Made by a program: the position numbers and the translations under genes. The notes under the pieces are model-generated. The model ran no database searches and was not told where the DNA came from. It was given only the letters and a program-made list of their open reading frames with translations. Below are positions 2,824 to 48,648 of a stretch of 64,000 nucleotides of DNA, piece after piece; position 1 is the first letter of the stretch, and the number at the start of each line of letters is the position of its first letter. Source of the stretch: Escherichia coli (GTDB lineage Bacteria > Pseudomonadota > Gammaproteobacteria > Enterobacterales > Enterobacteriaceae); the NCBI RefSeq assembly GCF_011045215.1, contig NZ_CP049201.1. One strand, 5' to 3'.

Positions 2824-4004
2824 ATGGTAAGGCGCTTTCAGCGGATATAACACTGACGCCGAAAGATATTGGTACGCTTAACTCAACAACAATGTCATTC
2901 AGCGGTGGTGCTGGTTGGTTCAAATTAGCAACGGTAACCATGCCACAGGCGAGTTCTGTTGTTTCAATTACGTTGATTGGTGGAGCTGGATTTAACGTGG
3001 GGTCACCTCAACAGGCAGGTATATCTGAACTTGTTTTGCGTGCAGGTAATGGTAATCCGAAGGGGATTACTGGTGCTTTATGGCAGCGCACATCGACAGG
3101 GTTTACAAATTTTGCCTGGGTCAATACATCTGGTGATACTTACGATATTTACGTTGCAATCGGAAATTATGCGACTGGTGTAAATATTCAATGGGATTAT
3201 ACCAGTAATGCCAGCGTGACGATTCATACGTCACCAGCATATTCTGCTAATAAGCCGGAAGGGTTAACGGACGGTACAGTTTATTCACTCTATACGCCAT
3301 CAGAACAGTTTTATCCGCCTGGCGCACCAATCCCGTGGCCATCAGATACCGTTCCGTCTGGCTATGCCCTGATGCAGGGGCAGACTTTTGACAAATCTGC
3401 CTACCCGAAACTTGCAGTCGCTTATCCGTCAGGCGTGATCCCTGATATGCGTGGCTGGACGATTAAGGGCAAGCCCGCCAGTGGTCGTGCCGTATTGTCT
3501 CAGGAACAGGACGGCATTAAATCGCATACCCACAGCGCCAGCGCATCCAGTACGGATTTGGGTACGAAAACCACATCGTCGTTTGATTACGGAACCAAAT
3601 CCACGAATAACACCGGGGCGCATACCCATAGTATTAGCGGGACTGCAAATAGTGCCGGTGCGCACCAACACAAGAGTTCCGGTGCATTTGGTGGCACGAA
3701 CACGAGCATTTTTCCTAATGGTTATACTGCGATTTCAAATCCAAGCGCGGGGATTATGAGCACAACAAGCGGTACTGGCCAGACTCGTAATGCAGGGAAG
3801 ACATCATCAGATGGTGCTCATACCCACTCACTGTCCGGCACTGCTGCAAGCGCAGGTGCACACGCACATACTGTCGGTATTGGTGCTCATACGCACTCCG
3901 TTGCGATTGGTTCACATGGACACACCATCACCGTTAACGCTGCTGGTAACGCGGAAAACACCGTCAAAAACATCGCATTTAACTATATTGTGAGGCTTGC
4001 ATAA
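2799..4004 (+). CDS. Side tail fibre protein, C-terminal receptor-binding portion with His-box repeats (probably a 5'-truncated remnant using an internal GTG)
   Basis: 401-aa ORF with repeated GAHTHS/GAHQH/GAHAHT/GSHGHT motifs and a C-terminal ...[22 protein letters not shown] typical of lambdoid Stf and T4 gp37-like fibre tips. Its stop overlaps the tfa start (TAATGG). The N-terminal tail-attachment region expected for Stf is absent. Confidence 0.65.
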
Positions 4005-4585
4005 TGGCATTCAGAATGAGTGAACAACCACGGACCATAAAAATTTATAATCTGCTGGCCGGAACTAATGAATTTATTGGTGAAGGTGACGCATATATTC
4101 CACCTCATACAGGTCTGCCAGCAAACAGTACCGATATTGCACCGCCAGATATTCCGGCAGGCTTCGTGGCTGTTTTCAACAGTGATGAGGCATCGTGGCA
4201 TCTTGTTGAAGACCATCGGGGTAAAACGGTTTATGACGTGGCTTCCGGCGACGCGTTATTTATTTCTGAACTCGGCTTATTACCGGAAAATGTCACCTGG
4301 TTATCCCCGGAAGGGGAGTTTCAGAAGTGGAACGGCACAGCCTGGGTGAAAGATGCAGAAGCAGAAAAACTGTTCCGGATCCGGGAGGCGGAAGAAACAA
4401 AAAACAACCTGATGCAGGTAGCCAGTGAGCATATTGCGCCACTTCAGGATGCTGTAGATCTGGAAATCGCAACGGAGGAAGAAAACTCGTTGCTGGAAGC
4501 CTGGAAGAAGTATCGGGTGTTGCTGAACCGTGTTGATACATCAACTGCACCTGATATTGAGTGGCCTGTAATACCAGAAGTTTAA
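4004..4585 (+). CDS. Tail fibre assembly protein (Tfa)
   Basis: 193-aa ORF translationally coupled to stf; the C-terminus ...[49 protein letters not shown] is the conserved Tfa motif. Confidence 0.85.
4431..4543 (+). repeat. Direct repeat copy 1: 3' segment of tfa (about 88% identical to 8260-8373)
   Basis: atattgcgccacttcaggatgctgtagatctggaaatcgcaacggaggaagaaaactcgttgctggaagcctggaagaagtatcgggtg... is nearly repeated at 8260-8373. Confidence 0.8.
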
Positions 4586-4589
4586 AATA

Positions 4590-4617
4590 AAAGCCCGCTT
4601 AAAATATCGCGGGCTTC
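4590..4617 (-). terminator. Hairpin (aaagcccgc...gcgggcttt) with a T-run on the minus strand; candidate terminator for the minus-strand catalase operon and possibly for tfa
   Basis: Inverted repeat aagcccgc / gcgggctt between convergent tfa and catalase genes; the minus-strand reading gives the stem followed by TTATTTTA. Confidence 0.5.
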
Positions 4618-4704
4618 GAAATATAAATGTATTTTCAGAGGCTAGAGCTTAGGATATCTCAGCGGCAATTAACTTATGAGGGATAGCTAAATACCAGAAG
4701 ATAA

Positions 4705-5595
4705 TTAGTTTTTACTATTTATCTTTGTTTGTGGTTCTCCTTCAGCAAGCTCAGCGCCAGTGACAGGATTGATGTCTTCATGGGATTTCAACCTTGTTGC
4801 CATAGCTTTTATCATAGCTTCTTGCTTGGTCGAAAGATTTATCGAGGCCTTCCCATCCCCACCGTCAACCGCTGGAACTGGATCGGAAATATAGTCAAAG
4901 TTTTCATCACTGTTCCAACTACCTCTGACGTCTTCACCTTCTGACATGTTGTAATATACGTTTTTGTATTTCTCAATTGGTGGTAATTTTCCTGGTGGAA
5001 AGGTGTTGCGAATTGAATGTAATGCTTTTTCAAATGAAAGCATGTGTGCTGCTTCCCTGGTCATTAAAAATGCCAGAGTGTCTTTTACTCCAGGATCATC
5101 AGTAACATTAATGAGACGTTCGTAAATGATCTTTGCCCGAGCTTCAGCTGCAATATTTGAACGAAGATCGGCCGTGACTTCGCCAATAGTATCAACATAA
5201 GCTGCAGTCCAGGGTACTCCAGCTGAATTAGTTAATGCTGGGCCTCCTCCGTAGAGGAGAGAAGTTATATGGCTGTCATTGCCATTTTGAGTTAAGGAAC
5301 GGTAAAGCTCAGCTTCATTCTCAGTTCCTTCAGCAAGTGCTCCTTTTGCACCTTTGTTGAGCATACCAACAAGAGAACCAATAATTTCGAGATGACTTAG
5401 TTCTTCTGTTGCTATGTCCATCAGCATATCCCTTCGGCCTGCATCTTCATCACTTAAGCCTTGAGTGAAGTATCGGCATGCTGCTGCAAGCTCACCCTGT
5501 GGCCCGCCGAATTGTTCTAAAAGTAGATTAGCCAAGCCTGGGTTTGGCTCACTTACACGTACTGTATATTGAAGTTTTTTCACGTGTCTAAACAT
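4705..5595 (-). CDS. Manganese (non-haem) catalase, KatN-like
   Basis: 296-aa product with ferritin-like Mn-catalase architecture (…EELSHLEIIGSLV…, …TREAAHMLSFEKAL…). It is last in a yciG-yciF-yciE-catalase gene order, as in the Salmonella yciGFE-katN operon. Confidence 0.8.
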   Translation of the reverse strand: MFRHVKKLQYTVRVSEPNPGLANLLLEQFGGPQGELAAACRYFTQGLSDEDAGRRDMLMDIATEELSHLEIIGSLVGMLNKGAKGALAEGTENEAELYRSLTQNGNDSHITSLLYGGGPALTNSAGVPWTAAYVDTIGEVTADLRSNIAAEARAKIIYERLINVTDDPGVKDTLAFLMTREAAHMLSFEKALHSIRNTFPPGKLPPIEKYKNVYYNMSEGEDVRGSWNSDENFDYISDPVPAVDGGDGKASINLSTKQEAMIKAMATRLKSHEDINPVTGAELAEGEPQTKINSKN

Positions 5596-13609: not shown

Positions 13610-16582
13610 TTACCAGTGCACTCCAATGGTGAGAAACGCGTTGTTGCGCTCTCCGTTACGTTGATTAATCGCCTTAAAGGTATGTTGATACTCGACGCCG
13701 AGACTGACTTTGTGCGGCCAGGCGTCGTAGTGCGTCTCGCCGGTCCAGATATTCCAGCGGACCCCGACACCGCCAAGCTGCGCGCCCTGAGTGCCTTTAT
13801 CACGATAGCCGTTGTCCTGAACGTGAGCGTAAGGCTCAATAGTCTGTCCGTTAGCTACCTTCTGATGCCAGCTGACGCGATAATCTGCCGTCCACGCCTG
13901 AATATCCTGGCGGATATATTGCGCCGCATCGAGGTACAGGTTTTGGGCAAACCAGCCTGAACCGCTCGGGTGCCATTCGTCGCTGTATTTGCCGCCATTA
14001 AAGAATGAGGCGCTGGCGCGCAGCATGGTATCGGATGCGCCATTTTGCCCGTTCAGCGGCAACTGCTGTTCGACGGCGAGGAAAAAGATCTGATCGCGCA
14101 GCGGCTTCCAGCGTAGACCGGTGCCGGACATCGGATTTTTCACCGGCATCATCACCCCGTTTTCTCCGGTATCGGCAAAGACGCGGCTATAAACTGAAAG
14201 CAGGTCGCCTTCCAGCAGCATATTTCGTCCGATGCGGTATTCGGCTTCCAGTTGCCCGTAGCTACGATAGCTTTTCCCTGGCGCTGCGCCGCCGACATTA
14301 TTGTTAGCGGTACTCATTGCGCCGGAACGCAAGCCGATGGAAGAATCGAAACTGAACGTCCAGCGGCGACCGACCTCCTCATGCAAACGGCGGAAATTGA
14401 AGCGTTGCTGATTTTGTTCTGGCGTCAATGGGGTTATCAGCGCCTGATTATCAATGTCATCAATCACCAGCCGGGCGTAGTGCTGCGTCGCAGGCATGTC
14501 ATCCAGACGCTGGTTCACGTAGGCCAGTTGTCGGATCAGTGCCGGATCGTCCGGAAGCCCTTTTTGCGCCTGTTCGAGCATTTCCCGCGACTGTGCGATA
14601 TCACCGCTATCCCACAAGGCGTAACCAAGCGCTGCCTGGATGTTGCTATTATTCGGTTCCAGTTCCAGCGCGGCGCGCAAATCACTCACCGCGGCCGGGA
14701 CATTATGACGTTGGCGATAAATTGTCGCCCGCGCAACGTAAGCGTTGGCAGAAGGCGCAATATTGATTGAGCGCGTGAGATCGTTCAGTGCGAGTTCCGG
14801 CTGACCAGGAATGTAACGTTGCGCATGCAGCCACCAGTAGAGGGCATTGCTTCCCAGTCCACGTTGTTCTGCCTGTTGTAGCCAGCGATCGCGAGCCGCA
14901 CCATTTCCTGCCGCCTGGGCGGTATTGGCAGCAGCAAGCAGATCCTCATTGCTCATGTCGTGAAGACTGATTTTCTGCCAGGCCGCCAGTGCGGTGGCGT
15001 AGTCCTCAACCTGATACGCCTGATAGGCTACCGCACGATGTTGCCAGGCGTTCGGTTGTCGTTGTTCGGCCTGAAGCCATGCATACAACGCCACACCGGG
15101 TAGCGTGTCCCGATAACACTTTGCCAGACGGTTCCAGGCGGCGGCATCGTAGGAAGGCGACATATCGCCCAGCAAGCGAACTATTGCCGGGCAATTATCT
15201 GCAATACCCGGCAACTGACTTTGCCACTGACGTTGCTCCGCCAGCGGTAAGGGTTTCGATAAAATCGCCACCTTCGCCGGCGTTGCCAGGTAAGGATGAC
15301 TTTCCAGCAGAGACGCCAGTCGCGCCATTAAAGTCTGGCTGATACGCGCATCGCCCTGGAAAGGATAGCGTTGCAGCAATAAATCGGCAGCTTCCCGTGA
15401 CTGCTCGTTCTGCATCAGTTGCCAGGTTAGTTGATCCAGGCGGGTAAGATTTGCCGGTTCTTGCTGATACAGCAAGCGTGCCAGACGCAGAGCTTCAGCC
15501 TTGTTACGGGTCGCCACGCTGACAGCATAACGCTCCTCAAGCATTTCATTGGCGGGGAGGGTGGCGAGCAGTTTTTGCGCTGCGTCGTACTGACCTTCTT
15601 TTAACAGCACCGGTAGCGTCGCGCCAACAACATACTGGCGGTTATCGGCAAACTGCACCGTATAATTCGCCAATGCCTGAACGGGGTTGGCGCTGTATTT
15701 AGATAACAGATAGAGCCAACTTTTCTCTTGTGCGTCCGTGGTAAACAGCGGCTTATTTTCAATGAGATAATGCTGGAGGCGTGCTTTTTCGCCACGATAA
15801 GCCAGCGCGGTCGCGTAAGTAATATATGACTGAGGATCGGTGAAGATCCCCTGTGATTGCAGTGCCAGGATCCGATCGTCCAGCTGCCCGGCAAGAAGCA
15901 CGTCAAACCACTGACGGCGTTCTGCCGCGCTTAATGTGTTCTGCTGGCGTGCTTCATTGTATAGCGTATCTGCCTGGGACCATTGTTTCAGGTAGATTGC
16001 CCGTTGCAGCAGATCGGTTCGCAGCGTTTTTCCTTCCGGCGATGCAGCAAACGTCGCATCGTTCAGTTGCGCTCTGGCGACAGGTAACTGTGCCAGCCGC
16101 AGGGCATTCTGCCCGACTTCACTGCGACAACGCAGGGTCGGCGCAGCATCGCACGCTTTTTGCTGGGCAAGCAGTTCTTCAACAGTTGTAATGCTTTTCA
16201 CTTCAACCGGAATAGCCGCCAGACTGCGCTCAAGTCGGGCATCTCCTGGGTGACGTTTCAGTTGATCCTCAAGCAACAGCCGCGCCCGGTCATCATGACC
16301 AAAATGGCGATAGGCTTCCGCAAGGTATAAAGTCAGCGGAATATTATCCGGCACCTGCTGGTGTATATATTCAAATTCGCGGATGGCGGTTGCTTCGTCG
16401 TTATTTTTCTGTGCCTTCAGCGCCTTATCGAGACGGGGATAAATAACAAAATGGCGATAATCGCTCAGCCCCAGCTCTTCTGCGCTGGTGCCGATATTGT
16501 CTGCGAGTGCGCTGGTACTCAATAAAGACGTCAGCAGTAAACCAGACCATCCGATGACGCGATTAAGGTTATTCTCCTTCAT
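13610..16582 (-). CDS. nfrA: Bacteriophage N4 adsorption protein A (outer-membrane TPR protein)
   Basis: 990-aa product from MKENNLNRVIGWSGLLLTSLLSTSALA (the ORF track has an in-frame 7-codon upstream extension); TPR-rich with a C-terminal beta-barrel-like region. Confidence 0.9.
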   Translation of the reverse strand: MKENNLNRVIGWSGLLLTSLLSTSALADNIGTSAEELGLSDYRHFVIYPRLDKALKAQKNNDEATAIREFEYIHQQVPDNIPLTLYLAEAYRHFGHDDRARLLLEDQLKRHPGDARLERSLAAIPVEVKSITTVEELLAQQKACDAAPTLRCRSEVGQNALRLAQLPVARAQLNDATFAASPEGKTLRTDLLQRAIYLKQWSQADTLYNEARQQNTLSAAERRQWFDVLLAGQLDDRILALQSQGIFTDPQSYITYATALAYRGEKARLQHYLIENKPLFTTDAQEKSWLYLLSKYSANPVQALANYTVQFADNRQYVVGATLPVLLKEGQYDAAQKLLATLPANEMLEERYAVSVATRNKAEALRLARLLYQQEPANLTRLDQLTWQLMQNEQSREAADLLLQRYPFQGDARISQTLMARLASLLESHPYLATPAKVAILSKPLPLAEQRQWQSQLPGIADNCPAIVRLLGDMSPSYDAAAWNRLAKCYRDTLPGVALYAWLQAEQRQPNAWQHRAVAYQAYQVEDYATALAAWQKISLHDMSNEDLLAAANTAQAAGNGAARDRWLQQAEQRGLGSNALYWWLHAQRYIPGQPELALNDLTRSINIAPSANAYVARATIYRQRHNVPAAVSDLRAALELEPNNSNIQAALGYALWDSGDIAQSREMLEQAQKGLPDDPALIRQLAYVNQRLDDMPATQHYARLVIDDIDNQALITPLTPEQNQQRFNFRRLHEEVGRRWTFSFDSSIGLRSGAMSTANNNVGGAAPGKSYRSYGQLEAEYRIGRNMLLEGDLLSVYSRVFADTGENGVMMPVKNPMSGTGLRWKPLRDQIFFLAVEQQLPLNGQNGASDTMLRASASFFNGGKYSDEWHPSGSGWFAQNLYLDAAQYIRQDIQAWTADYRVSWHQKVANGQTIEPYAHVQDNGYRDKGTQGAQLGGVGVRWNIWTGETHYDAWPHKVSLGVEYQHTFKAINQRNGERNNAFLTIGVHW

Positions 16583-18806
16583 TTTCGGACTCCAGTTGCG
16601 CAACCTGTTCTGTGTTTAAACCTGCTTTGAGTAATAGTGATTGCATCGAAACTTGTAATTCGCGTTGAATTGTCAGGACGCGATCCAACGTTTCCTGGCT
16701 GATAACGCCTTCGGTGACCAAAAACTTGCCGAGCGGCAGAGAACTGCGTTCATGGCGCAATAACAACACGTTAATTGCTGAACGATTAATATGACCGAGC
16801 GTGGTCAGTATTTCGGCGAACAGGAACTGATGCGGCACATATTGCCGCCAGATTTCACCGGCCTGCTGTTCCGTGAGCCACTGATGCTGAACCGCATTGT
16901 ACAACATTGCCCGCGGATCGTGACCGCGTCGGCGTGCATACCAGTGACGTAACCCCGTGACAATTTGTCCCCGCAGAACAATGACGTAACGCACTTTGCG
17001 TCCGACTTTACGCGTCAGGGCCGCCAGCGAAACCGGGTCAATACCATCTTCACTGCCGACAATTAACTCATCATTTTCCAGACGCAGCGGCAGTACCGCA
17101 TAATGCAGCGCCACGGAGGCCGGCATTTCGGCAATCAGCGAGGAAGGGATCTGCCAGGCATCGATGGATTCCCACGCCACGCCGTTTTGCTCTGCCAGCG
17201 CCTGTGCCAGCTGCTCGGCGCTAATCAGCCCCTGCATCAGCATTGAACCGCCCAGGCGTAGACCTTCGACGCGATTACGCAGTGCTGTATCGAGTTGTTC
17301 TTCAGTGATGACCTGATTTTCCAGCAGAATTTGGCCTAACGGGCGCAACGAGCGGGTATCGCCAGTCACGCTGGGGAAGTCATGCGTTGTTTTATCCCAC
17401 GCGACGCGACGTGGATCGCCGTGTTGGAGTACCTGTTTTAGCGCGCGCCAGTTGGCCATGAAGTTAATCAGGTTGCCCCAGAAAAGACGCAGGACGGAAA
17501 GCAGCCCCTGCGTCAGGCCGTAGTAGCCAGTAACGAAAATCACCCGCTGCACGATGCGGTTAACCATCAAACCAAAGTTTAGCCACAGCAGGGTCATTAA
17601 CCATGCGCTGCCGCTGAAAATAGAAAGGAAATGCCAGGCATCGGGCCACAAACTTTCATACGCCAGCAACAGCAAAAGCTGGATCATCACCAGCATCGCG
17701 AGGAAGCTGACAAAGTTACTGATTGCCCCTTTGCGGTCGCGCCAGAGAAAGTAGTTCAGCGTCAGGCTGGAGGTCCATTTATGGGTTTTAAAGCCCTGGA
17801 AAACAATGCCGATGATCCAGCGGGATTTTTGTCGAACCGCAGTCGAAAAGGTATCGGGGAAATATTCGCGCACGCAGATCATGTTTGATGTCCGTGCGTG
17901 CTGTAAAAATTTACGCTGTTCGCGTTCTTTGGCTTCGTCCACCACCGGAAAACGGACAAAAATTTCCGTCATACCTTTTTCTTTCAGGCGGAAGCCAATG
18001 TCGTAATCTTCAGTAAGACTCTGCACGTCGAAAGCAATACCGTCACCGTCAGCTAACAGTGCGGTCACGGCGCGGCGGCTGAAACAGGTGCCGACGCCTG
18101 CGCTGGGCACTTGTCCGGCGAGGGCTTCACGCACCGGAACATCTTTGCCATGCAGCTCTGAAAACTCATCAATGTAAGTCATGCTGGTGAAGTGCGTCCA
18201 TTCGCGTTCAAACGGATACACTGGGATCTGAATCAGATCTTTACGCTCGACCAGATAGTTGAACAGACGCAATTCCATCGGTGAAATCACATCTTCGGCG
18301 TCATGCAGAATAAAACCAGCAAAAGCGAAATTGGCGCTACGCTCAAACTGGGTGATGGCGTCCAGCACGTTGTTCAGACAGTCGGCTTTGCTGGTGGGGC
18401 CAGGACGCGCGCAGACTACCTTATGCACATTCGGGAAGCGAGCGCACACTTCGTCAACATCACGCTGAGTATCGGGGTCGTTGGGGTAGGTGCCAACAAA
18501 GATATGATAGTTTTCGTAGTCGAGCGTGGTCGCCGCCAGCTCGGCCATATTGCCGATGACGCCCGTTTCATTCCACGCCGGAACCATAATCGCTAACGGT
18601 TTTTCATCTGGTTTATACAGTTCGCGGTAACTCATTCGCGGGTAGCGGCGATAAACACTCAACTTGCGTTTAATGCGGCGTACCCAGTAGACGACATCAA
18701 TAAAAAAATCGTCCAGCCCGCTGATGAACATGATGACCGCTAACGTTATCGCGATTACTTTTAAGCCATAGAGCCAGGTAGCAAAAACATCAAGAAGCCA
18801 GTCCAC
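16569..18806 (-). CDS. nfrB: Bacteriophage N4 adsorption protein B (inner-membrane family-2 glycosyltransferase)
   Basis: 745-aa product MDWLLDVFATWLYGLKVIAITLAVIMFISGLDDFFIDVVYWVRR...; overlaps the nfrA start. Confidence 0.9.
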   Translation of the reverse strand: MDWLLDVFATWLYGLKVIAITLAVIMFISGLDDFFIDVVYWVRRIKRKLSVYRRYPRMSYRELYKPDEKPLAIMVPAWNETGVIGNMAELAATTLDYENYHIFVGTYPNDPDTQRDVDEVCARFPNVHKVVCARPGPTSKADCLNNVLDAITQFERSANFAFAGFILHDAEDVISPMELRLFNYLVERKDLIQIPVYPFEREWTHFTSMTYIDEFSELHGKDVPVREALAGQVPSAGVGTCFSRRAVTALLADGDGIAFDVQSLTEDYDIGFRLKEKGMTEIFVRFPVVDEAKEREQRKFLQHARTSNMICVREYFPDTFSTAVRQKSRWIIGIVFQGFKTHKWTSSLTLNYFLWRDRKGAISNFVSFLAMLVMIQLLLLLAYESLWPDAWHFLSIFSGSAWLMTLLWLNFGLMVNRIVQRVIFVTGYYGLTQGLLSVLRLFWGNLINFMANWRALKQVLQHGDPRRVAWDKTTHDFPSVTGDTRSLRPLGQILLENQVITEEQLDTALRNRVEGLRLGGSMLMQGLISAEQLAQALAEQNGVAWESIDAWQIPSSLIAEMPASVALHYAVLPLRLENDELIVGSEDGIDPVSLAALTRKVGRKVRYVIVLRGQIVTGLRHWYARRRGHDPRAMLYNAVQHQWLTEQQAGEIWRQYVPHQFLFAEILTTLGHINRSAINVLLLRHERSSLPLGKFLVTEGVISQETLDRVLTIQRELQVSMQSLLLKAGLNTEQVAQLESENEGE

Positions 18807-18955: not shown

Positions 18956-20398
18956 TTAAGCGGGTAATGTGATAACAAATCTTGTTCCCCGCGCATCTGA
19001 CGTTACTGCAACCGTGCCTTTATGTGCGACAACAATCGATTTCACTATCGCCAGCCCAATGCCGCTACCTTCGCCTTTTCGTTGGCGGGAGGGGTCAACG
19101 CGGTAGAAACGGTCAAACAATCGCGGTAAGTGCTCGGGCGCAATGGGCGTACCGGGGTTTTCGACGATAACTTGCACCAGATGATCGACCGTCTGGCAGC
19201 GCACTACAATAGCCTCTCCGGGTGGCGTATAACGCAGGGCGTTCGAAAGCAGGTTGCTTAACGCCCGACGCAGCATCAGCGGATCGCCCGCAACCTGGCA
19301 CTCGTCGCCAACAAACTGCAGCTCCACGCCGCGATCTTCCGCTAAAGCCTCGAAAAAATCGAACACTTTGCCGACTTCATCCGCCAGGTTGAGCATTTTC
19401 TTTTCGGGGATTAACTGGTTGTTATCGGCCTGGGCGAGAAACAGCATATCGCTGACCATTTTCGCCATTCGCGTCAGCTCTTCGAGATTAGAGTAGAGCA
19501 CATCTTCCAGCTCCTTCTGGCTGCGCGACTGGCTGAGGGCGATTTCCGTTTGCGTTATGAGATTAGTAATTGGTGTGCGAATTTCGTGGGCGATATCCGC
19601 TGAGAAATTGGACTGGCGGGTAAAGACATCCTCAATACGCTCGATCATATGGTTGAACGACAGTACCAGCTGTTCCAGCTCAATCGGCACGGTCTGCGGG
19701 TCAAGGCGGACGTCGAGATCTTTCGAGGTGATATTCTGGATTTGACGGCTGACGCTGCGGATCGGCGCGTGACCTTTATGAACCGCCAATAGCACGATAA
19801 AGACGATCAGGATGCTGATGACCGATGCGGTCATAATAAGTTTATTCATCAAATCATTTATGTAATGAAGATGAAAATCGATCGAAAGCGCGATGTAGAG
19901 CGTATAAATCGGTTTGCCGTCAACCAGTGAGCCAACTGGCAAACTGATCATCCGCCAGTTGCTGTGTTCCATATGCCCGTGACCGTGGCCTGGCATCATC
20001 ATCGTCGGGCCGGAGAGGAGAAACACCTCGCCGCCCCGCGCGTCTTTATCGGGTATGGCATCGCGCGCAAACTCGCGGATATCAGGCGCACCGGGGGAGT
20101 GATACACCGTTTTACCGTGGCTATCTGCCAGGGAAATCAACACATTGGAATAACCACTGACGATATCTTCCAGCGTCATTAAGCGTCGGGCTTGCGTTTC
20201 GTCAGGGTGATTTAGTACGCGTTCAAGGGTGGCACTAATCTCTTTTAAATCATTAATATCCTGCTCGGCAAAATGCACTTTTACTGAGTGGATCATGATC
20301 CATGCAAAGGCGAAAAACGCCGCGATGGTGGCCAGGCTGATAAAAAAGGTCAGGCGGGTTGCCAGCGAAAACGGGCGCTGAAATGGCTTACTGACCAT
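18956..20398 (-). CDS. cusS: Copper/silver-sensing histidine kinase CusS
   Basis: 480-aa product from [28 protein letters not shown]...; HAMP, HisKA (H-box [10 protein letters not shown]) and HATPase domains; overlaps cusR. Confidence 0.9.
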
Positions 20399-21071
20399 CC
20401 GGCACCTCAAGCATGTAACCCACGCCGCGCACGGTTTGAATCAGCTTCGGCTCAAAGTCGTTGTCGATTTTGCCGCGTAGCCGCTTCACCGCCACATCAA
20501 TGGCGTTAGTGTCGCTGTCAAAATTCATGTCCCATACCTGCGAGGCGATAAGCGAGCGGGGCAGCACTTCGCCCTGATGGCGGAGAAAAAACTCCAGCAG
20601 AGTAAACTCTTTACTGGTCAGAGTGATGCGCGTGCCGCTGCGGGTGACTTTGCGGCTGACGAGATCGACCATCAAATCGGCAACCTGAAACTGACTTTCG
20701 ATAATCACCGCCGCCCCGCGCCGCAGGAGAGTGCGCACCCGCGCCAGCAGTTCAGCAAACGCGAACGGCTTCACCAGATAGTCATCGGCCCCCAACTCCA
20801 GCCCCTTGACGCGATGTTCAATGGTGCCAAGCGCGGTAAGCAACAGAATCGGCATCCCTTTATTGGCGGAGCGCAACATGCGCACGATATCCCAGCCGTT
20901 CACGTCCGGCAGCATAATATCGAGGATTATCAGGTCATAATCTCCGGTCATCGCCAGATGGTAGCCATTCAGCCCGTTGTCGGCCAAATCGACCACAAAA
21001 CCGGCTTCGGTTAACCCTTTGGTCAAGTATTCTCCGGTTTTCTTTTCATCTTCGACAATCAACAGTTTCAT
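20388..21071 (-). CDS. cusR: OmpR-family response regulator CusR
   Basis: 227-aa product [67 protein letters not shown]... Confidence 0.95.
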
Positions 21072-21136
21072 ATTTCCTCCGCATGTTGCCCGGGCAATTC
21101 TAGAGTAGCGGGATCAGATGGCAATCGCTTATTGGC

Positions 21137-21158
21137 AAAATGACAATTTTGTCATTTT
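21137..21158. promoter_or_regulatory. CusR box: perfect palindrome AAAATGACAATTTTGTCATTTT in the divergent cusR/cusC promoter region
   Basis: Palindrome read directly in the sequence; matches the described CusR-binding motif between cusR and cusC. Confidence 0.8.
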
Positions 21159-21227
21159 CCTGTCACCGGAAAATCAGAGCCTGGCGAGTAAAGTTGGCGG
21201 TATAAAATCACCAGAAATTATGAGCCT

Positions 21228-22610
21228 ATGTCTCCTTGTAAACTTCTGCCATTTTGTGTGGCCCTTGCGCTAACCGGTTGTTCACTGGCACCGGATTATC
21301 AGCGCCCGGCAATGCCCGTACCGCAGCAGTTCTCACTCAGCCAGAACGGCCTGGTTAACGCAGCAGATAACTATCAGAACGCGGGCTGGCGCACCTTTTT
21401 TGTTGATAATCAGGTGAAGACGCTGATTAGCGAGGCGCTGGAGAATAACCGGGATTTGCGCATGGCGACGCTGAAAGTGCAGGAGGCACGGGCGCAATAT
21501 CGTCTGACTGATGCCGACCGCTACCCACAGCTCAATGGTGAGGGCAGCGGCAGCTGGAGCGGCAATCTTAAAGGCGATTCAGCCACGACGCGGGAGTTTT
21601 CTACTGGCCTTAACGCCAGCTTTGACCTCGATTTTTTCGGGCGCTTAAAGAACATGAGCGAAGCCGAGCGACAAAATTATTTAGCCACTGAGGAAGCTCA
21701 GCGCGCGGTGCATATTCTGCTGGTTTCTAATGTCGCGCAAAGCTATTTCAATCAGCAGCTGGCGTATGCGCAATTGCAAATAGCCGAAGAAACGCTGCGT
21801 AATTATCAGCAGTCATATGCGTTTGTCGAAAAACAACTGTTGACAGGTAGCAGTAATGTTCTGGCGCTGGAACAGGCTCGCGGGGTGATTGAAAGTACCC
21901 GCAGCGACATCGCTAAACGTCAGGGGGAACTGGCGCAGGCGAATAATGCATTGCAACTGTTACTGGGAAGCTACGGCAAGCTGCCGCAAGCGCAGACAGT
22001 AAACAGCGACAGCCTGCAAAGCGTTAAATTACCGGCGGGCTTGTCGTCGCAAATCTTATTGCAGCGCCCGGATATTATGGAAGCTGAACACGCGTTAATG
22101 GCGGCTAATGCCAATATTGGTGCTGCACGTGCAGCATTTTTCCCGTCTATCAGCCTGACCAGCGGAATATCAACCGCCAGCAGCGATCTGTCGTCATTAT
22201 TTAACGCCAGCAGCGGGATGTGGAATTTTATTCCTAAAATTGAGATCCCCATTTTTAATGCCGGACGCAACCAGGCCAATCTGGATATCGCCGAAATTCG
22301 CCAGCAGCAGTCGGTGGTGAATTATGAACAGAAAATCCAGAACGCCTTTAAAGAAGTGGCAGATGCGCTGGCATTACGTCAAAGCCTGAACGATCAAATT
22401 AGCGCCCAGCAGCGTTATCTGGCGTCGCTGCAAATTACTTTGCAACGGGCGCGGGCATTATATCAGCACGGCGCGGTAAGTTATCTGGAAGTGCTGGATG
22501 CCGAGCGTTCTTTATTTGCAACCCGACAAACCTTACTTGACCTGAATTATGCCCGTCAGGTCAACGAAATTTCTTTATATACCGCACTTGGTGGCGGTTG
22601 GCAGCAATAA
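21228..22610 (+). CDS. cusC: Outer-membrane efflux channel CusC (TolC-like lipoprotein)
   Basis: Product MSPCKLLPFCVALALTGCSLAPDYQRP... with lipobox LTGC. Confidence 0.9.
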   Translation: MSPCKLLPFCVALALTGCSLAPDYQRPAMPVPQQFSLSQNGLVNAADNYQNAGWRTFFVDNQVKTLISEALENNRDLRMATLKVQEARAQYRLTDADRYPQLNGEGSGSWSGNLKGDSATTREFSTGLNASFDLDFFGRLKNMSEAERQNYLATEEAQRAVHILLVSNVAQSYFNQQLAYAQLQIAEETLRNYQQSYAFVEKQLLTGSSNVLALEQARGVIESTRSDIAKRQGELAQANNALQLLLGSYGKLPQAQTVNSDSLQSVKLPAGLSSQILLQRPDIMEAEHALMAANANIGAARAAFFPSISLTSGISTASSDLSSLFNASSGMWNFIPKIEIPIFNAGRNQANLDIAEIRQQQSVVNYEQKIQNAFKEVADALALRQSLNDQISAQQRYLASLQITLQRARALYQHGAVSYLEVLDAERSLFATRQTLLDLNYARQVNEISLYTALGGGWQQ

Positions 22611-22633
22611 TTTTTAACTCCAGGAGAGAATAA

Positions 22634-22966
22634 ATGAAAAAAGCACTGCAAGTCGCAATGTTCAGTCTGTTTACCGTTATTGGCTTTAATGCCCAGGCTA
22701 ACGAACATCATCATGAAACCATGAGCGAAGCACAACCACAGGTCATTAGTGCTACCGGCGTGGTAAAAGGTGTTGATCTGGAAAGCAAAAAAATCACCAT
22801 CCATCACGATCCGATTGCTGCCGTGAACTGGCCGGAGATGACCATGCGCTTTACCATCACTCCGCAGACGAAAATGAGTGAAATTAAAACTGGCGACAAA
22901 GTGGCGTTTAATTTTGTCCAGCAGGGCAACCTTTCTTTATTACAGGATATTAAAGTCAGCCAGTAA
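22634..22966 (+). CDS. cusF: Periplasmic copper chaperone CusF
   Basis: 110-aa product MKKALQVAMFSLFTVIGFNAQANEHHHETMSEAQPQVISATGVVKGVDLESKKITIHHDPIAAVNWPEMTMRF... Confidence 0.95.
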   Translation: MKKALQVAMFSLFTVIGFNAQANEHHHETMSEAQPQVISATGVVKGVDLESKKITIHHDPIAAVNWPEMTMRFTITPQTKMSEIKTGDKVAFNFVQQGNLSLLQDIKVSQ

Positions 22967-22981
22967 CCCAGGTTTAATGAG

Positions 22982-24205
22982 ATGAAAAAAATCGCGCTTA
23001 TTATCGGCAGCATGATCGCGGGCGGTATTATTTCTGCGGCAGGTTTTACCTGGTTTGCAAAGGCTGAACCACCCGCAGAAAAAACGTCGACCGCAGAACG
23101 TAAAATCTTATTCTGGTACGACCCGATGTATCCCAATACGCGGTTCGATAAACCAGGTAAATCGCCGTTTATGGATATGGATCTGGTGCCGAAATATGCC
23201 GATGAAGAGAGTTCTGCGTCTGGTGTGCGCATTGACCCGACTCAGACGCAGAATCTGGGGGTGAAAACGGCTACCGTCACGCGCGGGCCGCTGACTTTTG
23301 CCCAGAGTTTCCCGGCGAATGTCAGTTACAACGAGTATCAGTATGCCATTGTGCAGGCTCGCGCCGCCGGGTTTATCGACAAGGTGTATCCGCTTACCGT
23401 GGGCGATAAAGTGCAAAAGGGCACACCGCTTCTCGACCTGACCATTCCCGACTGGGTGGAAGCGCAGAGTGAGTATTTACTGCTGCGCGAAACCGGCGGT
23501 ACGGCGACCCAGACTGAAGGCATTCTTGAGCGGCTGCGACTGGCGGGAATGCCGGAGGCGGATATTCGCCGCCTGATCGCCACGCAAAAAATCCAGACTC
23601 GCTTTACGCTCAAAGCACCCATTGATGGCGTGATCACCGCGTTTGATCTGCGCGCGGGAATGAATATCGCCAAAGATAACGTGGTAGCGAAAATTCAGGG
23701 TATGGACCCGGTGTGGGTCACTGCTGCGATCCCGGAGTCCATCGCCTGGCTGGTGAAAGATGCCTCGCAGTTTACGCTCACCGTTCCGGCGCGACCTGAT
23801 AAAACACTCACCATCCGCAAATGGACGCTACTACCTGGCGTGGATGCCGCGACCCGCACGCTGCAGCTGCGTCTGGAAGTCGACAACGCCGACGAGGCGC
23901 TAAAACCGGGAATGAACGCCTGGTTGCAACTCAATACCGCCAGCGAACCGATGCTGCTCATTCCGTCACAAGCGCTGATTGATACCGGCAACGAACAGCG
24001 GGTGATTACCGTTGATGCCGACGGGCGCTTTGTACCGAAACGCGTTGCCGTTTTCCAGGCATCGCAAGGTGTCACCGCGTTACGCTCTGGTCTGGCGGAA
24101 GGTGAAAAGGTGGTTTCCAGCGGCCTGTTCCTGATTGATTCCGAAGCCAATATTTCTGGCGCACTGGAGCGGATGCGCTCTGAAACTGCTACCCATGCGC
24201 ATTGA
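22982..24205 (+). CDS. cusB: Membrane-fusion adaptor CusB
   Basis: 407-aa product MKKIALIIGSMIAGGIISAAGFTWFAKAEPPAEKTST... Confidence 0.95.
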   Translation: MKKIALIIGSMIAGGIISAAGFTWFAKAEPPAEKTSTAERKILFWYDPMYPNTRFDKPGKSPFMDMDLVPKYADEESSASGVRIDPTQTQNLGVKTATVTRGPLTFAQSFPANVSYNEYQYAIVQARAAGFIDKVYPLTVGDKVQKGTPLLDLTIPDWVEAQSEYLLLRETGGTATQTEGILERLRLAGMPEADIRRLIATQKIQTRFTLKAPIDGVITAFDLRAGMNIAKDNVVAKIQGMDPVWVTAAIPESIAWLVKDASQFTLTVPARPDKTLTIRKWTLLPGVDAATRTLQLRLEVDNADEALKPGMNAWLQLNTASEPMLLIPSQALIDTGNEQRVITVDADGRFVPKRVAVFQASQGVTALRSGLAEGEKVVSSGLFLIDSEANISGALERMRSETATHAH

Positions 24206-24216
24206 GGGAATAACCA

Positions 24217-27200
24217 ATGATTGAATGGATTATTCGTCGCTCGGTGGCGAACCGTTTTCTGGTACTGATGGGTGCGTTGTTTCTGAGCATCTGGGGTACC
24301 TGGACCATCATTAACACGCCAGTGGATGCGCTGCCGGATCTCTCCGATGTGCAGGTGATTATTAAAACCAGCTATCCCGGGCAGGCACCGCAAATCGTTG
24401 AAAATCAGGTGACTTATCCGCTAACTACCACCATGTTGTCGGTACCTGGCGCGAAGACTGTGCGCGGTTTCTCGCAGTTTGGCGACTCTTATGTGTATGT
24501 CATTTTCGAAGATGGCACCGATCCGTACTGGGCGCGCTCGCGGGTGCTGGAGTACCTCAACCAGGTACAGGGTAAGCTGCCTGCGGGAGTCAGCGCCGAG
24601 CTGGGGCCAGATGCCACGGGTGTTGGCTGGATCTATGAATATGCACTGGTGGATCGCAGCGGTAAGCACGATCTGGCCGATTTACGCTCATTGCAGGACT
24701 GGTTTCTCAAATATGAGCTAAAAACCATCCCTGACGTTGCGGAAGTGGCGTCGGTGGGCGGCGTGGTGAAAGAGTATCAGGTGGTTATCGATCCCCAGCG
24801 CCTGGCGCAATATGGTATCAGTCTCGCCGAAGTAAAAAGCGCGCTAGATGCTTCAAACCAGGAAGCGGGCGGTTCGTCGATCGAACTGGCGGAAGCGGAA
24901 TATATGGTGCGCGCCAGCGGCTATCTGCAAACGCTCGACGACTTTAATCACATCGTTTTAAAAGCCAGTGAAAATGGCGTGCCTGTTTATCTGCGTGATG
25001 TTGCGAAGGTCCAGGTTGGCCCGGAGATGCGCCGGGGCATTGCCGAACTGAACGGCGAAGGCGAAGTTGCGGGCGGGGTGGTGATCCTGCGCTCCGGCAA
25101 AAACGCCCGAGAAGTGATCGCCGCCGTGAAGGACAAACTGGAAACGCTGAAAAGTAGTCTGCCGGAAGGCGTGGAGATAGTTACAACATACGATCGCAGC
25201 CAGCTCATTGACCGGGCCATCGACAACCTCAGCGGCAAGTTGCTGGAAGAGTTTATTGTGGTGGCGGTAGTCTGTGCGCTGTTTCTCTGGCATGTGCGCT
25301 CGGCGCTGGTGGCGATTATTTCGTTGCCGCTGGGGTTGTGTATTGCTTTTATTGTCATGCACTTCCAGGGGCTGAATGCCAATATTATGTCGTTGGGTGG
25401 CATTGCGATTGCCGTCGGGGCGATGGTCGATGCTGCTATCGTCATGATCGAGAATGCACATAAACGGCTGGAAGAGTGGCAGCACCAGCATCCTGACGCC
25501 ACGCTGGATAATAAAACGCGCTGGCAGGTGATCGCCGATGCGTCTGTTGAAGTGGGGCCGGCGCTGTTTATCAGTCTGCTGATTATCACGTTGTCGTTTA
25601 TCCCGATCTTCACCCTGGAAGGGCAGGAAGGGCGTCTGTTTGGCCCGCTGGCGTTCACTAAAACCTATGCGATGGCGGGTGCGGCGCTGCTGGCGATCGT
25701 AGTGATCCCTATCCTGATGGGTTACTGGATCCGTGGCAAAATTCCGCCAGAAAGCAGTAACCCGCTCAATCGCTTTTTGATTCGTGTTTATCATCCGCTG
25801 TTGCTGAAAGTACTGCACTGGCCGAAAACCACGCTGCTGGTGGCGGCGCTTTCGGTGCTGACGGTTCTCTGGCCGCTCAATAAAGTTGGCGGGGAATTTT
25901 TACCACAGATCAATGAAGGCGACTTGTTGTATATGCCATCGACGTTGCCGGGGATTTCCGCAGCGGAGGCGGCGAGTATGCTGCAAAAAACCGACAAGCT
26001 GATTATGAGCGTACCTGAAGTGGCGCGGGTATTTGGCAAAACCGGAAAAGCGGAAACCGCCACCGACTCTGCTCCGCTGGAGATGGTGGAAACGACCATC
26101 CAGCTTAAGCCACAGGATCAGTGGCGGCCAGGCATGACAATGGACAAAATCATTGAGGAACTGGATAACACCGTGCGTCTGCCGGGGCTGGCGAATCTGT
26201 GGGTGCCGCCAATTCGTAACCGTATCGATATGCTCTCAACCGGCATTAAAAGCCCTATCGGCATAAAAGTTTCCGGCACTGTGCTGGCGGATATCGACGC
26301 GATGGCGGAGCAAATTGAAGAGGTGGCACGAACGGTGCCAGGCGTGGCTTCTGCGCTTGCCGAGCGTCTGGAAGGTGGGCGCTATATCAACGTTGAGATT
26401 AACCGTGAAAAAGCCGCGCGTTACGGTATGACGGTGGCGGATGTGCAGTTGTTTGTGACTTCTGCGGTGGGCGGGGCGATGGTTGGCGAAACGGTGGAAG
26501 GGATTGCCCGTTATCCCATTAATCTGCGTTATCCGCAAAGCTGGCGCGATAGTCCGCAGGCACTGCGCCAGTTGCCGATCCTGACGCCGATGAAGCAGCA
26601 AATCACCCTGGCAGACGTAGCCGACGTTAAAGTCTCTACCGGACCGTCGATGCTGAAAACCGAGAATGCGCGCCCGACGAGCTGGATTTATATCGATGCC
26701 CGCGATCGTGACATGGTGTCGGTGGTTCACGATTTGCAAAAAGCGATAGCTGAAAAAGTGCAGTTAAAACCGGGCACCAGCGTGGCATTCTCCGGGCAGT
26801 TCGAGCTACTGGAGCGCGCCAACCATAAGCTGAAACTCATGGTGCCGATGACACTGATGATCATCTTCGTGCTGTTGTATCTGGCATTCCGTCGGGTGGG
26901 CGAAGCGTTGCTGATTATCAGCAGCGTACCGTTTGCGCTGGTGGGCGGCATCTGGTTGCTGTGGTGGATGGGCTTTCATCTTTCTGTGGCGACGGGCACC
27001 GGTTTTATTGCCCTTGCCGGGGTCGCCGCCGAATTTGGCGTGGTGATGCTGATGTATTTACGTCACGCCATAGAGGCCGAGCCGTCGTTGAATAATCCGC
27101 AAACATTCAGCGAGCAGAAGCTGGATGAGGCGTTGTATCACGGCGCGGTACTGCGCGTGCGCCCGAAAGCGATGACGGTGGCGGTGATTATCGCTGGTCT

Positions 27201-27360
27201 GCTGCCGATTCTGTGGGGAACAGGAGCAGGGTCAGAGGTGATGAGCCGGATTGCCGCGCCGATGATTGGCGGCATGATCACCGCGCCTTTGCTGTCGCTG
27301 TTTATTATCCCGGCGGCGTATAAGCTGATGTGGCTGCACCGACATCGGGTACGGAAATAA
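24217..27360 (+). CDS. cusA: RND heavy-metal efflux pump CusA
   Basis: 1047-aa product [71 protein letters not shown]... Confidence 0.95.
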
Positions 27361-32882: not shown

Positions 32883-33322
32883 TTATGTTGGCGTTTTCTA
32901 TTCAGTATAGAAGTCGGAGCGGCTGGGCGAGATGCGGAAGTTCTGGAATGTTTCTTTTTTTGGTGATGGTGAACTGATGGTGCCTGAAGCAATTTGGCTA
33001 CTTTTGCAATGTGACAAGTTATGGCACGGCTGGCTGGTGGCGAAGAATTTTGACGATTGAGGCATGTAGAAAAAACGGGCTCAGCTTCAGTTGATTAAAT
33101 GAGGAGTGAGAAGTCCGAAACAGGATTTACTGTATAAATAAACAGCCATTTTGTTGAGGAAGGGTAAGATAACGGCGGGTGCCTGAAGCTTTCCGGTTTC
33201 AGGTTTACTCTGAGGTCTGGAAAGATGAAGCCCCAGGAGATATTTCTATCAACCCTGGGGCTGCCACTCCAAACCAGACAATTTGGATGGTAGTTCCTTC
33301 TTCGCATGGAGGCAATATAAAC

Positions 33323-33475
33323 ATGCTGACGAAATATGCTCTTGTGGCAGTCATAGTGCTGTGTTTGACGGTACTGGGATTTACGCTTCTGGTCGGAGAC
33401 TCGCTGTGTGAGTTTACGGTGAAGGAACGTAATATTGAGTTCAGGGCTGTTCTCGCTTACGAACCGAAGAAGTAG
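33323..33475 (+). CDS. hokE: Hok-family type I toxin HokE (small membrane peptide)
   Basis: 50-aa product [50 protein letters not shown]; an in-frame upstream-extended ORF (33179-33475) is consistent with a mok-like leader frame. Confidence 0.85.
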
Positions 33476-34249: not shown

Positions 34250-34355
34250 AAACTGCCTGATGCGCTACGCTTATCAGGCCTACATGGTCCTGCAATATAT
34301 TGAATTGGCAAGATTTTTGTAGGCCGGATAAGGCGTTCACGCCGCATCCGGCATG
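34250..34355. repeat. REP/BIME palindromic elements between entD and fepA
   Basis: gcctgatgcgctacgcttatcaggcctaca and tgtaggccggataaggcgttcacgccgcatccggca are canonical E. coli REP units. Confidence 0.85.
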
Positions 34356-42391: not shown

Positions 42392-43525
42392 ATGTCATCA
42401 CTGAATATTAAACAGGGAAGTGACGCTCATTTTCCCGATTATCCTCTGGCGTCGCCCAGTAATAATGAAATTGATTTACTTAATCTAATCTCAGTTTTAT
42501 GGCGGGCCAAAAAAACGGTCATGGCGGTCGTTTTTGCGTTTGCCTGCGCAGGCTTGCTGATCTCTTTCATCCTGCCGCAAAAATGGACCAGCGCGGCGGT
42601 TGTCACGCCTCCAGAACCTGTTCAGTGGCAAGAGTTGGAGAAAACATTCACTAAGCTTCGTGTGCTGGATCTGGATATCAAAATTGATCGTACAGAAGCA
42701 TTTAACCTGTTTATCAAGAAGTTTCAGTCGGTTAGCTTGCTGGAAGAGTACCTGCGTTCATCACCTTATGTGATGGACCAATTAAAAGAGGCGAAAATCG
42801 ACGAACTGGATTTGCATCGCGCAATTGTCGCATTGAGCGAAAAAATGAAAGCGGTTGATGACAATGCCAGTAAGAAAAAAGATGAACCGTCACTGTATAC
42901 CTCCTGGACGCTAAGTTTTACCGCGCCAACCAGTGAAGAGGCGCAGACCGTTTTGTGCGGGTATATCGATTATATCTCTGCGTTGGTGGTGAAAGAGTCG
43001 CTAGAAAACGTCCGTAATAAGCTGGAGATCAAAACCCAGTTTGAAAAAGAAAAACTGGCTCAGGATCGCATTAAAACGAAAAATCAACTTGATGCAAACA
43101 TTCAGCGCCTCAATTATTCACTCGACATTGCCAACGCGGCAGGAATTAAAAAGCCCGTATACAGTAATGGTCAGGCCGTTAAAGATGACCCCGATTTCTC
43201 TATTTCTCTCGGCGCAGACGGTATTGAACGCAAACTGGAAATTGAAAAAGCGGTTACTGACGTTGCGGAACTGAATGGTGAATTACGTAATCGTCAGTAT
43301 CTTGTCGAGCAATTAACAAAAGCAAATGTCAACGATGTGAATTTTACGCCGTTTAAATATCAGTTAAGTCCGTCATTGCCAGTGAAAAAAGACGGTCCGG
43401 GTAAGGCGATTATTGTGATCCTTTCCGCGTTGATCGGCGGGATGGTGGCTTGTGGTGGTGTGCTGTTGCGTCATGCGATGGCATCCAGAAAACAGGATGC
43501 CATGATGGCAGACCACTTAGTTTAA
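42392..43525 (+). CDS. fepE: Wzz-family polysaccharide co-polymerase FepE (very-long O-antigen chain-length regulator)
   Basis: 377-aa product MSSLNIKQGSDAHFPDYPLASPSNNEIDLLNLISVLWRAKKTVMAVVFAFACAGLLISF... Confidence 0.9.
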   Translation: MSSLNIKQGSDAHFPDYPLASPSNNEIDLLNLISVLWRAKKTVMAVVFAFACAGLLISFILPQKWTSAAVVTPPEPVQWQELEKTFTKLRVLDLDIKIDRTEAFNLFIKKFQSVSLLEEYLRSSPYVMDQLKEAKIDELDLHRAIVALSEKMKAVDDNASKKKDEPSLYTSWTLSFTAPTSEEAQTVLCGYIDYISALVVKESLENVRNKLEIKTQFEKEKLAQDRIKTKNQLDANIQRLNYSLDIANAAGIKKPVYSNGQAVKDDPDFSISLGADGIERKLEIEKAVTDVAELNGELRNRQYLVEQLTKANVNDVNFTPFKYQLSPSLPVKKDGPGKAIIVILSALIGGMVACGGVLLRHAMASRKQDAMMADHLV

Positions 43526-47691: not shown

Positions 47692-48648
47692 TTAAAACAG
47701 CGCCTTAAGTCGTTCCAGCACTTGCATGGCGCTGTAGTAATCCAGACGGAACGTCTCGGTTCCCAGCGCATAAACCTGCTTGTTTTGTACTGCAGGCAGG
47801 TGCGCGAGCAGCGGATTAGCATAAATAGCATCGGCATCTTTCTGATCACCGGCGAACAGGAATAGTGACTCGCCATTTAACCCTGCAGCCAGATTTTCCC
47901 CACCAAGCTGAATGATGTCATGGCGTTTACCCTGGCTTTGGCTGGCATTTAACCCTGCGGGTAACTTCGCCAGCGTAAAGCCGAGTTGTTCCAGCATCTG
48001 CCCTTGTGCTGATTCCGGCGTCCAGAGATTGGCACTGTGTGCAGCGGCAGTATAGACAATGGCAGTGACCGGCTGCGGCGGTAATTTGATTTGCTCTTTC
48101 GCCGCCGCCAGTTGCTTATCAAACTGCGCAATCCGCTCTGCCGCTTGTTTCTCATGCCCGGTAATTTCGCCAAGTTGCGTTAACAGCGCCTGCCAGCTTT
48201 TGTCGTCGTAATTGATGATTAATGTCGGGGCGATGGTGGAAAGCTGATCATACAGCGCCAGCGCCGAATCCCCGCCGGTTGCGCTAATTAAAATCAGATC
48301 CGGCATTTGCGCGGCAACGGCTTCGGCGCTCGGTTCGCCGATATAGAGCCGTTGCAGTTTGCGTTCTTTCGCCACCTTGCTCCACTGGCGTAAAAAGCCC
48401 TGGTCATCCGCGACGCGGTTATTCGGCGTGGTCGCGCCGCTGGCGATCACCGGAGCATCAATCGCCAGCAGTGAGCCGGTCAGGGTGACGCTGGTGGAAA
48501 CAATACGCTGCGGCTGGCTTTCCAGGGTATGAGTGCCACGGCTGTCAGTAATCTGACGCGGCCAGTCGGCGGCCTGAACTGCGGCTATTCCTGAAAACAA
48601 AAGTCCTGTTAATAGAAGGGCATTGCGGTAGAGCGGGGCGAGTCTCAC
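47692..48648 (-). CDS. fepB: Periplasmic ferric-enterobactin binding protein FepB
   Basis: 318-aa product [46 protein letters not shown]... Confidence 0.95.

Follow-up and report, generated by a model that had tools for sequence, protein, structure and literature searches.

The CusR box of the Escherichia coli cus locus, an operator shared with HprR and PhoB, and the promoter geometry around it

The CusR box is the described operator of the Escherichia coli cus locus. It is quoted as AAAATGACAAnnTTGTCATTTT, between cusRS and cusC(F)BA, in a passage of PMC11195947 that follows Yamamoto & Ishihama 2005, and a DNase I footprint of CusR on the box is cited in the supplement of Gao & Stock (PMC9725139 S1 Text). 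Binding of CusR, HprR, and PhoB at this locus and copper induction of both of its promoters have been demonstrated by others. ChIP-chip with tagged CusR yields one peak, located in the cusR/cusC spacer, and a cusR-lacZ fusion reveals positive autoregulation of cusR (bioRxiv 10.1101/2020.08.17.251918). Genomic SELEX recovers a CusR peak in the same spacer, which also contains the sole high-level HprR peak (PMC8249747). In addition, the cusC promoter is activated in a copper-dependent manner in Reg-Seq (PMC12132413), and in the literature copper induction of PcusC and of cusR-lacZ depends on CusRS. These binding data apply to the K-12 box, which is identical to the one described here.

Several related sites provide a frame for comparison. 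HprR (YedW) is a paralogue 51.6% similar to CusR, and both are reported to recognize the same sequences with different affinities. Its own box, CATTACAAAATTGTAATG in the hprRS/hiuH spacer, is likewise a hyphenated dyad and belongs to the same length class; however, its half-site in E. coli is TTACA/TGTAA rather than TGACA/TGTCA, and the signal is peroxide/HOCl rather than copper. SilR is approximately 87% identical to CusR, and the silR/silC, silE, and pcoE promoters, of which the sil ones are controlled by SilR/SilS and that of pcoE depends on CusR, share the TGACAAnnTTGTCA core with cus, but they are plasmid-borne and their outer A/T tracts are less symmetric (ATAATGACAATGTTGTCATTTT; AAGGTGACAAAATTGTCATCAT). 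The palindromes of Pseudomonas CopR/CusR (ATTCATnnATGTAAT; CTGACAn5GTAAT) resemble the cus box in that a single site in a divergent spacer drives both operons, and they are common to several paralogous heavy-metal response regulators (PMC11195947). They differ from the E. coli site in half-site sequence and in that CopR can act negatively at one of the two promoters.

Here, we analyze the corresponding element in a window of E. coli DNA, by which we mean the whole stretch of 64,000 nucleotides. The box and its flanking genes are as follows.

18956-20398, minus strand: cusS, Cu(I)/Ag(I) sensor histidine kinase, 480 aa (NCBIfam NF007345, 981.9 bits)
20388-21071, minus strand: cusR, OmpR/PhoB-family response regulator, 227 aa (NCBIfam NF007346 equivalog, 507.9 bits against a cutoff of 420)
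21137-21158, no strand: CusR box, AAAATGACAATTTTGTCATTTT, that is, AAAATGACAA-TT-TTGTCATTTT (from the sequence and inverted-repeat detection)
21137-21146, 21147-21148, and 21149-21158: left arm, central TT, and right arm of the box
21228-27360, plus strand: cusCFBA operon (NF007347, NF007348, NF007303, and TIGR00914, all above cutoffs)
21228-22610, plus strand: cusC, outer-membrane channel (NCBIfam, above cutoff)
22634-22966, plus strand: cusF, metallochaperone (NCBIfam, above cutoff)
22982-24205, plus strand: cusB, adaptor (NCBIfam, above cutoff)
24217-27360, plus strand: cusA, RND pump (NCBIfam, above cutoff)

The box is located between the divergent cusRS and cusCFBA, all six genes of which are matched by NCBIfam models above the curated cutoffs. 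The same cus genes are named by RefSeq on identical DNA, both in an O157:H7 genome and in K-12 DH1, the cusR protein being WP_000770953.1. The cusS ATG lies at 20398, and the gene overlaps the 3' end of cusR by 11 nt.

We identify the element with near certainty as the CusR operator (CusR box) of the E. coli cus locus, and nothing found in this analysis speaks against that identification. All 20 specified positions of the published box AAAATGACAAnnTTGTCATTTT are present in the window, with TT as nn; a comparison with the described motif, proposed by an earlier note made from the sequence alone, thus yields no mismatch. The 22 nt, the flanking genes, and the position within the spacer are the same as in E. 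coli K-12. That note had given AAAATGACAATTTTGTCATTTT at 21137-21158, and both sequence and coordinates are exact. It had further described the box as a perfect 22-bp palindrome, which holds for the 10-nt arms (10+2+10, 100% complementary) but not for the central TT, which is not self-complementary, leaving 20/22 positions in agreement between the box and its own reverse complement. "Perfect" is therefore slightly wrong, and the box is a hyphenated dyad, just as the published consensus with its "nn" is written. The noncoding cusR/cusC spacer spans 156 bp from start codon to start codon (21072-21227), and the box sits in the middle of this divergent promoter region, as had been claimed: its center (21147.5) is separated from the start codons of cusR and cusC by 76.5 and 80.5 bp, respectively, and is thus central to within 2 bp.

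In the 64-kb window, the pattern AAAATGACAANNTTGTCATTTT has a single match, even with 3 mismatches allowed, and 100 dinucleotide-preserving shuffles of the window give 0 matches, with 0 expected. The 14-nt core TGACAANNTTGTCA likewise has one exact match in the window; at 2 mismatches four further matches appear, which is the chance level (5 found against 2.9 expected).

The element is strongly conserved within the species. Of 5426 complete E. coli genomes, 5333 contain the 156-bp spacer at 95% identity or more, and 5147 contain the exact 30-mer formed by the box and 8 flanking bases on its left, all at 99% identity or more. This 30-nt query was run with megablast and a 28-base word, and the 5147 matches obtained at these settings show the box to be essentially invariant in E. 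coli. The spacer of the window is 100% identical to that of O157:H7 strains, while the K-12 spacer differs at 2 of 156 positions, namely 21159 (C in the window, T in K-12) and 21201 (T in the window, C in K-12). Both differences fall outside the box, and the window alleles are those found in an O157:H7 genome.

To follow the box beyond E. coli, we scanned one genome per species (approximately 100,000 species genomes) for AAATGACAANNTTGTCATTT; figures from the matches listed are lower bounds, and the spread of the box is under-sampled. Among the matches listed, the box is found beside cusRS/cusCFBA homologues in at least three Providencia species, whose CusR is approximately 70% identical, and beside cus homologues also in Shimwellia, “Candidatus Schmidhempelia,” and E. 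coli. In Providencia, Shimwellia, and Schmidhempelia the flanks have diverged although the box is kept. Upstream of a Ralstonia CusR homologue (70.7% identical), we find no comparable palindrome within 330 bp.

Two of these loci show arrangements of their own. In “Candidatus Schmidhempelia bombi,” the box forms part of a longer perfect palindrome of 46 bp with four half-sites, aaacatgacagtTAAATGACAAAATTGTCATTTAactgtcatgttt (5116-5161 of the retrieved locus); cusRS are the only adjacent cus genes, and the other neighbor is convergent. In Shimwellia pseudoproteus, the box lies downstream of cusS and not between cusR and cusC (5075-5541 of the retrieved locus), and it faces a run of same-strand open reading frames. 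The last two of these are homologous to CusB and CusA, and the first three appear to resemble a DUF305 protein, a CusF-like protein, and an outer-membrane channel, a layout similar to that of silE.

An IncHI2 sil/pco plasmid contains box-like sites in the silR/silC spacer (ATAATGACAATGTTGTCATTTT), upstream of pcoE (TGACAATTTTGTCA), and upstream of silE (TGACAAAGATGTCA). The sil genes were reached via a CusR protein search and not via the spacer DNA, which at blastn sensitivity retrieves no sil from the plasmid collection and just 11 E. coli records, all with an identity of at least 97%. Several of these PLSDB “plasmids” are of chromosome size, three of them at 4.8-4.9 Mb, and evidently represent chromosomes or misassemblies; such “plasmid” matches to the cus spacer are no sign of mobility. 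When the cus, sil, and pco sites are aligned, both arms are conserved and the central dinucleotide is free (TT, AT, AA, CG, and CA). Fixed arms with a variable center are the pattern expected for a protein that reads two half-sites.

The geometry around the box is conserved as well. We aligned 11 cus, sil, and pco promoters from Enterobacterales and Orbales on the side of the effector gene, in a common register on the box. Positions +3..+7 after the box read TG[T/A]CA, or AGTCA in the case of pcoE, in 11/11 promoters, with varying neighboring columns, and positions +31..+36 read TAnnnT in 11/11, being TATAAT in silE and pcoE and TAAAGT in silC and cusC. The columns between these two features are poorly conserved, aside from A(A/T)CAG(A/G)(A/G) at +15..+21, which is present in 10/11; the window copy is ATCAGAG at 21173-21179 and falls within the predicted cusC promoter spacer. 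The silR/silC, silE, and pcoE promoters thus share with cus, besides the core, (T/A)GTCA at +3..+7, the +15..+21 motif, and the -10 at +31..+36, whereas silE and pcoE differ from cusC in having a consensus TATAAT as -10. The same layout of box, +3..+7, and +31..+36 is seen in Pantoea hprR-uraH, with TATAAC at the -10 position, and an Acinetobacter cop promoter fits solely with the register shifted by 2 bp. For the window, this gives the following observed or predicted promoter features.

21097-21124, minus strand: predicted cusR promoter, -35 TTGCCA (21124..21119), 16-bp gap, -10 TAGAAT (21102..21097), scan 10/12
21161-21165, plus strand: third TGTCA half-site, 11 bp after the TGTCA of the right arm (21150-21154), on the cusC side only
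21165-21172, plus strand: cusC -35 position, matching TTGACA at 1-3/6 and unusable
21189-21194, plus strand: predicted cusC -10, TAAAGT, from positional conservation in 11/11 promoters

The earlier note had suggested that -10 and -35 elements be placed on both strands relative to the box. On the cusR side this gives TTGCCA-16-TAGAAT, which is close to the sigma-70 consensus and the only sigma-70-like promoter that the scan finds in the spacer; on the cusC side it gives a -10 without a -35, both placements being predictions. A sigma-70 promoter scan of the plus strand of the spacer returned no promoter, and the -35 search covered spacers of 16-18 bp. CTGTCA at 21160-21165 was also considered as the cusC -35 and was rejected, the gap to the conserved -10 being 23 bp. 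From these elements we infer that cusC starts near 21201 and cusR near 21090. The box center would then lie near -53.5 of the cusC promoter and near -57.5 of the cusR promoter, and the third half-site would occupy about -40 to -36 of the cusC promoter; the exact start sites are to be read accordingly as predicted. In the diagram of Gao & Stock, the -35 of PcusR is labeled on the left, TGGCAA-containing side of the box and that of PcusC on the right (PMC9725139 S1 Text), and with these labels on the two sides of the box the predicted placements fit. With TAAAGT 30 bp past the box, no -35, and the third half-site, the cusC layout looks typical of an activator-dependent promoter. A second -10-like hexamer, TATAAA/TAAAAT at 21201-21208, is nearer to the ATG and may instead serve as the cusC -10. 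The window T at 21201, one of the two differences from K-12, coincides with the predicted cusC start and makes TATAAA.

A natural disruption of this arrangement is present in E. coli O19:H7 strain 730V1, in which IS903B (3109-4222 of the retrieved locus) is inserted after spacer position 109, at approximately window position 21180. It separates the third half-site from the predicted cusC -10, and a second insertion, of ISKpn26, splits cusC. The efflux operon of this strain is probably uncoupled from CusR.

Taken with the published work, the locus operates as follows. CusS senses periplasmic Cu(I)/Ag(I) and phosphorylates CusR. The phosphorylated CusR then binds its hyphenated dyad, AAAATGACAA-nn-TTGTCATTTT, midway along the 156-bp spacer and, from this single site, activates the cusCFBA promoter and, more weakly, its own cusRS promoter. 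The third TGTCA half-site lies where a -35-proximal activator contact would be expected. HprR, of the peroxide/HOCl system, binds the same box, and PhoB an overlapping direct repeat made up of the right arm and the third half-site. The earlier note had proposed copper-responsive control of cusCFBA and cusRS, and on this point flanking genes, published box, ChIP-chip, and SELEX all agree. CusR as the regulator stands too, with the refinement that the box is not exclusive to it, as HprR and PhoB share the same or overlapping bases. The chromosomal system for copper/silver efflux is controlled from this one box, at which, as has been documented, three paralogous two-component systems converge: CusSR (copper), HprSR (oxidants), and PhoBR (phosphate).

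The PhoB site in the window can be described thus.

21150-21167, plus strand: published PhoB site, a pho-box-like direct repeat, TGTCATTTTCCTGTCACC, i.e., TGTCATTTT(T/C)CTGTCACC, overlapping the right arm of the box

The consensus pho box for PhoB, which we take to be two 11-bp direct repeats CTGTCATAWAWCTGTCAY, is matched at 14/18 positions by TTGTCATTTTCCTGTCAC at 21149-21166. Two other 14/18 matches occur in the window, CTGTCAGTAATCTGACGC at 48542-48559 (plus strand) and CCGCCATAAAACTGAGAT at 42488-42505 (minus strand), and this is probably the chance level. In classical pho promoters, the repeat replaces the -35 and the -10 lies approximately 10 bp away. At cus, about 22-23 bp separate the end of the repeat (21166) from the first base of the -10-like hexamer (21189), which departs from the classical layout.

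Fitzgerald et al. report TGTCATTTTTCTGTCACC as the PhoB ChIP-seq site for cusR/cusC (PMC10294691), to which window positions 21150-21167 are identical at 17/18. The C at 21159, the other difference from K-12, falls within this site. Under low phosphate, cusC RNA amounts to 208 in the wild type and 50 in delta-phoB, a drop of approximately 4-fold, and the PhoB ChIP signal at the cus site is low relative to phoA or phoE (PMC10294691). The PhoB ChIP-chip peak of Yang et al., centered 77.5 bp from the start of cusR and 79.5 bp from that of cusC, falls at window position 21148.5, and PhoB binding at cusR/cusC was in addition observed by EMSA and a reporter assay (PMC3465305). The cus site resembles a pho box in its direct repeat, which consists of the right arm and the third half-site at a spacing of 11 bp and is bound by PhoB in vivo, as published; it differs from one in its extra inverted left arm, its more distant -10, and its modest PhoB effect.

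The third half-site was at first listed as a new observation and was dropped as such, since it lies inside the PhoB site of PMC10294691 and is remarked on in the supplement of PMC9725139. There, Gao & Stock describe the head-to-head half-sites of the footprinted site as unusual for the OmpR subfamily, mention that SELEX suggests head-to-tail binding by phospho-CusR, and state that “an additional half-site may exist downstream” (PMC9725139 S1 Text). Our comparison adds that the third half-site keeps its position in the cus, sil, pco, and hpr promoters examined, which argues that it is an ancestral part of the promoter design and not an E. coli-specific PhoB add-on. It is possible, though we hold it only tentatively, that the operator of the CusR/SilR/HprR clade is not the 22-bp palindrome but a unit of three half-sites, an inverted pair plus a promoter-proximal tandem TG(T/A)CA 11 bp further on and at a fixed distance of 23 bp from the -10. 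Were this true, the third half-site would be used by the phosphorylated regulator, which would sit head-to-tail on the tandem pair, in the manner of PhoB, and contact RNA polymerase, and the head-to-head pair would be occupied by unphosphorylated protein or act on the divergent promoter. The cross-binding of PhoB at cusC would in that case follow from the common architecture as a side effect, and PhoB would also be expected to target the silE, silC, and pcoE promoters on plasmids. This proposal is less novel for the published remark on the extra half-site (PMC9725139) and the published PhoB site (PMC10294691); the comparative geometry lends modest support to the existing suggestion and leaves the known picture unchanged.

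Could phosphate, and not copper, be the main input? One might argue that the element is mainly a PhoB site, with the tandem repeat TGTCATTTTCCTGTCAC tying cus to phosphate starvation and the palindrome being secondary. The ChIP-seq and ChIP-chip peaks on the spacer, the EMSA and reporter results (PMC10294691, PMC3465305), the fall of cusC RNA from 208 to 50 in delta-phoB under low phosphate, and the 14/18 pho-box match would all fit. However, the left arm is conserved as much as the right one across genera and in sil/pco, and a two-repeat pho box has no need of it; CusR ChIP-chip and SELEX peaks are found in the spacer, copper induction needs cusRS, and the PhoB ChIP signal is low compared with phoA or phoE. 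Left-arm conservation, the CusR data, and the low PhoB signal point to PhoB as a secondary input that does not replace CusR, and we regard a primarily PhoB-directed element as very unlikely.

Any inverted repeat can fold, and this one gives as a single strand a 9-bp stem with a 4-nt loop (-10.6/-10.9 kcal/mol for the two strands, z -3.7/-4.2), which could be taken for an RNA or DNA hairpin, a terminator or attenuator, in place of a protein site. We consider this extremely improbable: both predicted start sites lie downstream of the element, which would thus be absent from either transcript; apart from two G-C pairs the stem consists of A-T pairs, where an intrinsic terminator has a G+C-rich stem followed by a T-run; and a terminator scan of the spacer was empty. 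The 2-nt center moreover varies while the arms stay fixed, which fits two half-sites read by a protein.

That the box might be a chance AT-rich intergenic palindrome with no function is more improbable still, since only the composition of the spacer (45% G+C against 51% in the whole window) speaks for it, against the absence of matches in the shuffles, the exact 30-mer in 5147 genomes, the retention of the box across genera with diverged flanks, and the published binding.

The CusR box string nevertheless has look-alikes. Approximately 90 of the 120 matches listed in other genomes are a Collinsella sequence, GCGAAATGACAACGTTGTCATTTCGC, a 26-bp perfect palindrome with the CusR-box core. In Collinsella sp. 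WCA1-178-WT-3, it lies (3557-3582 of the retrieved locus) approximately 100 bp upstream of a LacI-family gene (3681-4742), and in none of the listed Collinsella loci are cus homologues found within 4 kb of it. Cre-type operators follow the pattern TGWNANCGNTNWCA. The idea that the E. coli element is itself the operator of a LacI/cre-type repressor could appeal to the occurrence of GCGAAATGACAACGTTGTCATTTCGC in about 90 Collinsella genomes, to its position upstream of a LacI-family gene in the one locus examined, and to its fit to TGWNANCGNTNWCA, but its probability is negligible given the center of TT rather than CG in E. coli, the lack of an adjacent LacI-family gene, and the fact that, among the matches listed, every proteobacterial locus with nearby cus homologues has cusRS/cusCFBA as neighbors. 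The Collinsella palindrome is a coincidental look-alike, and as such look-alikes dominate the scan, the box string alone is not diagnostic outside the cus context.

The element remains, as the earlier note put it, a textbook site and a clean internal control: the CusR box was already known, its use by HprR and PhoB has been documented, and a third half-site has been proposed in the literature. What the present analysis shows is the identity, uniqueness, and conservation of the box in this window, together with its conserved surrounding geometry. The element is useful as an internal control in that a real, characterized operator was recognized from raw sequence with the right coordinates and genes.

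Finally, the surroundings of the locus differ between strains. In the window, nfrB (16569-18806) adjoins cusS, while the O157:H7 genome with the identical cusR/cusC spacer carries vgrG, a DcrB-related gene, and a frameshifted rhs in place of nfrB, making the left side of the cus locus strain-variable. Elsewhere in the window, Rfam matches above the gathering score comprise the IS009 RNA (4347-4545, plus strand), the sok antitoxin RNA (33177-33331, plus strand), the ES036 sRNA (34276-34317, minus strand), and the STnc70 sRNA (62658-62751, plus strand).
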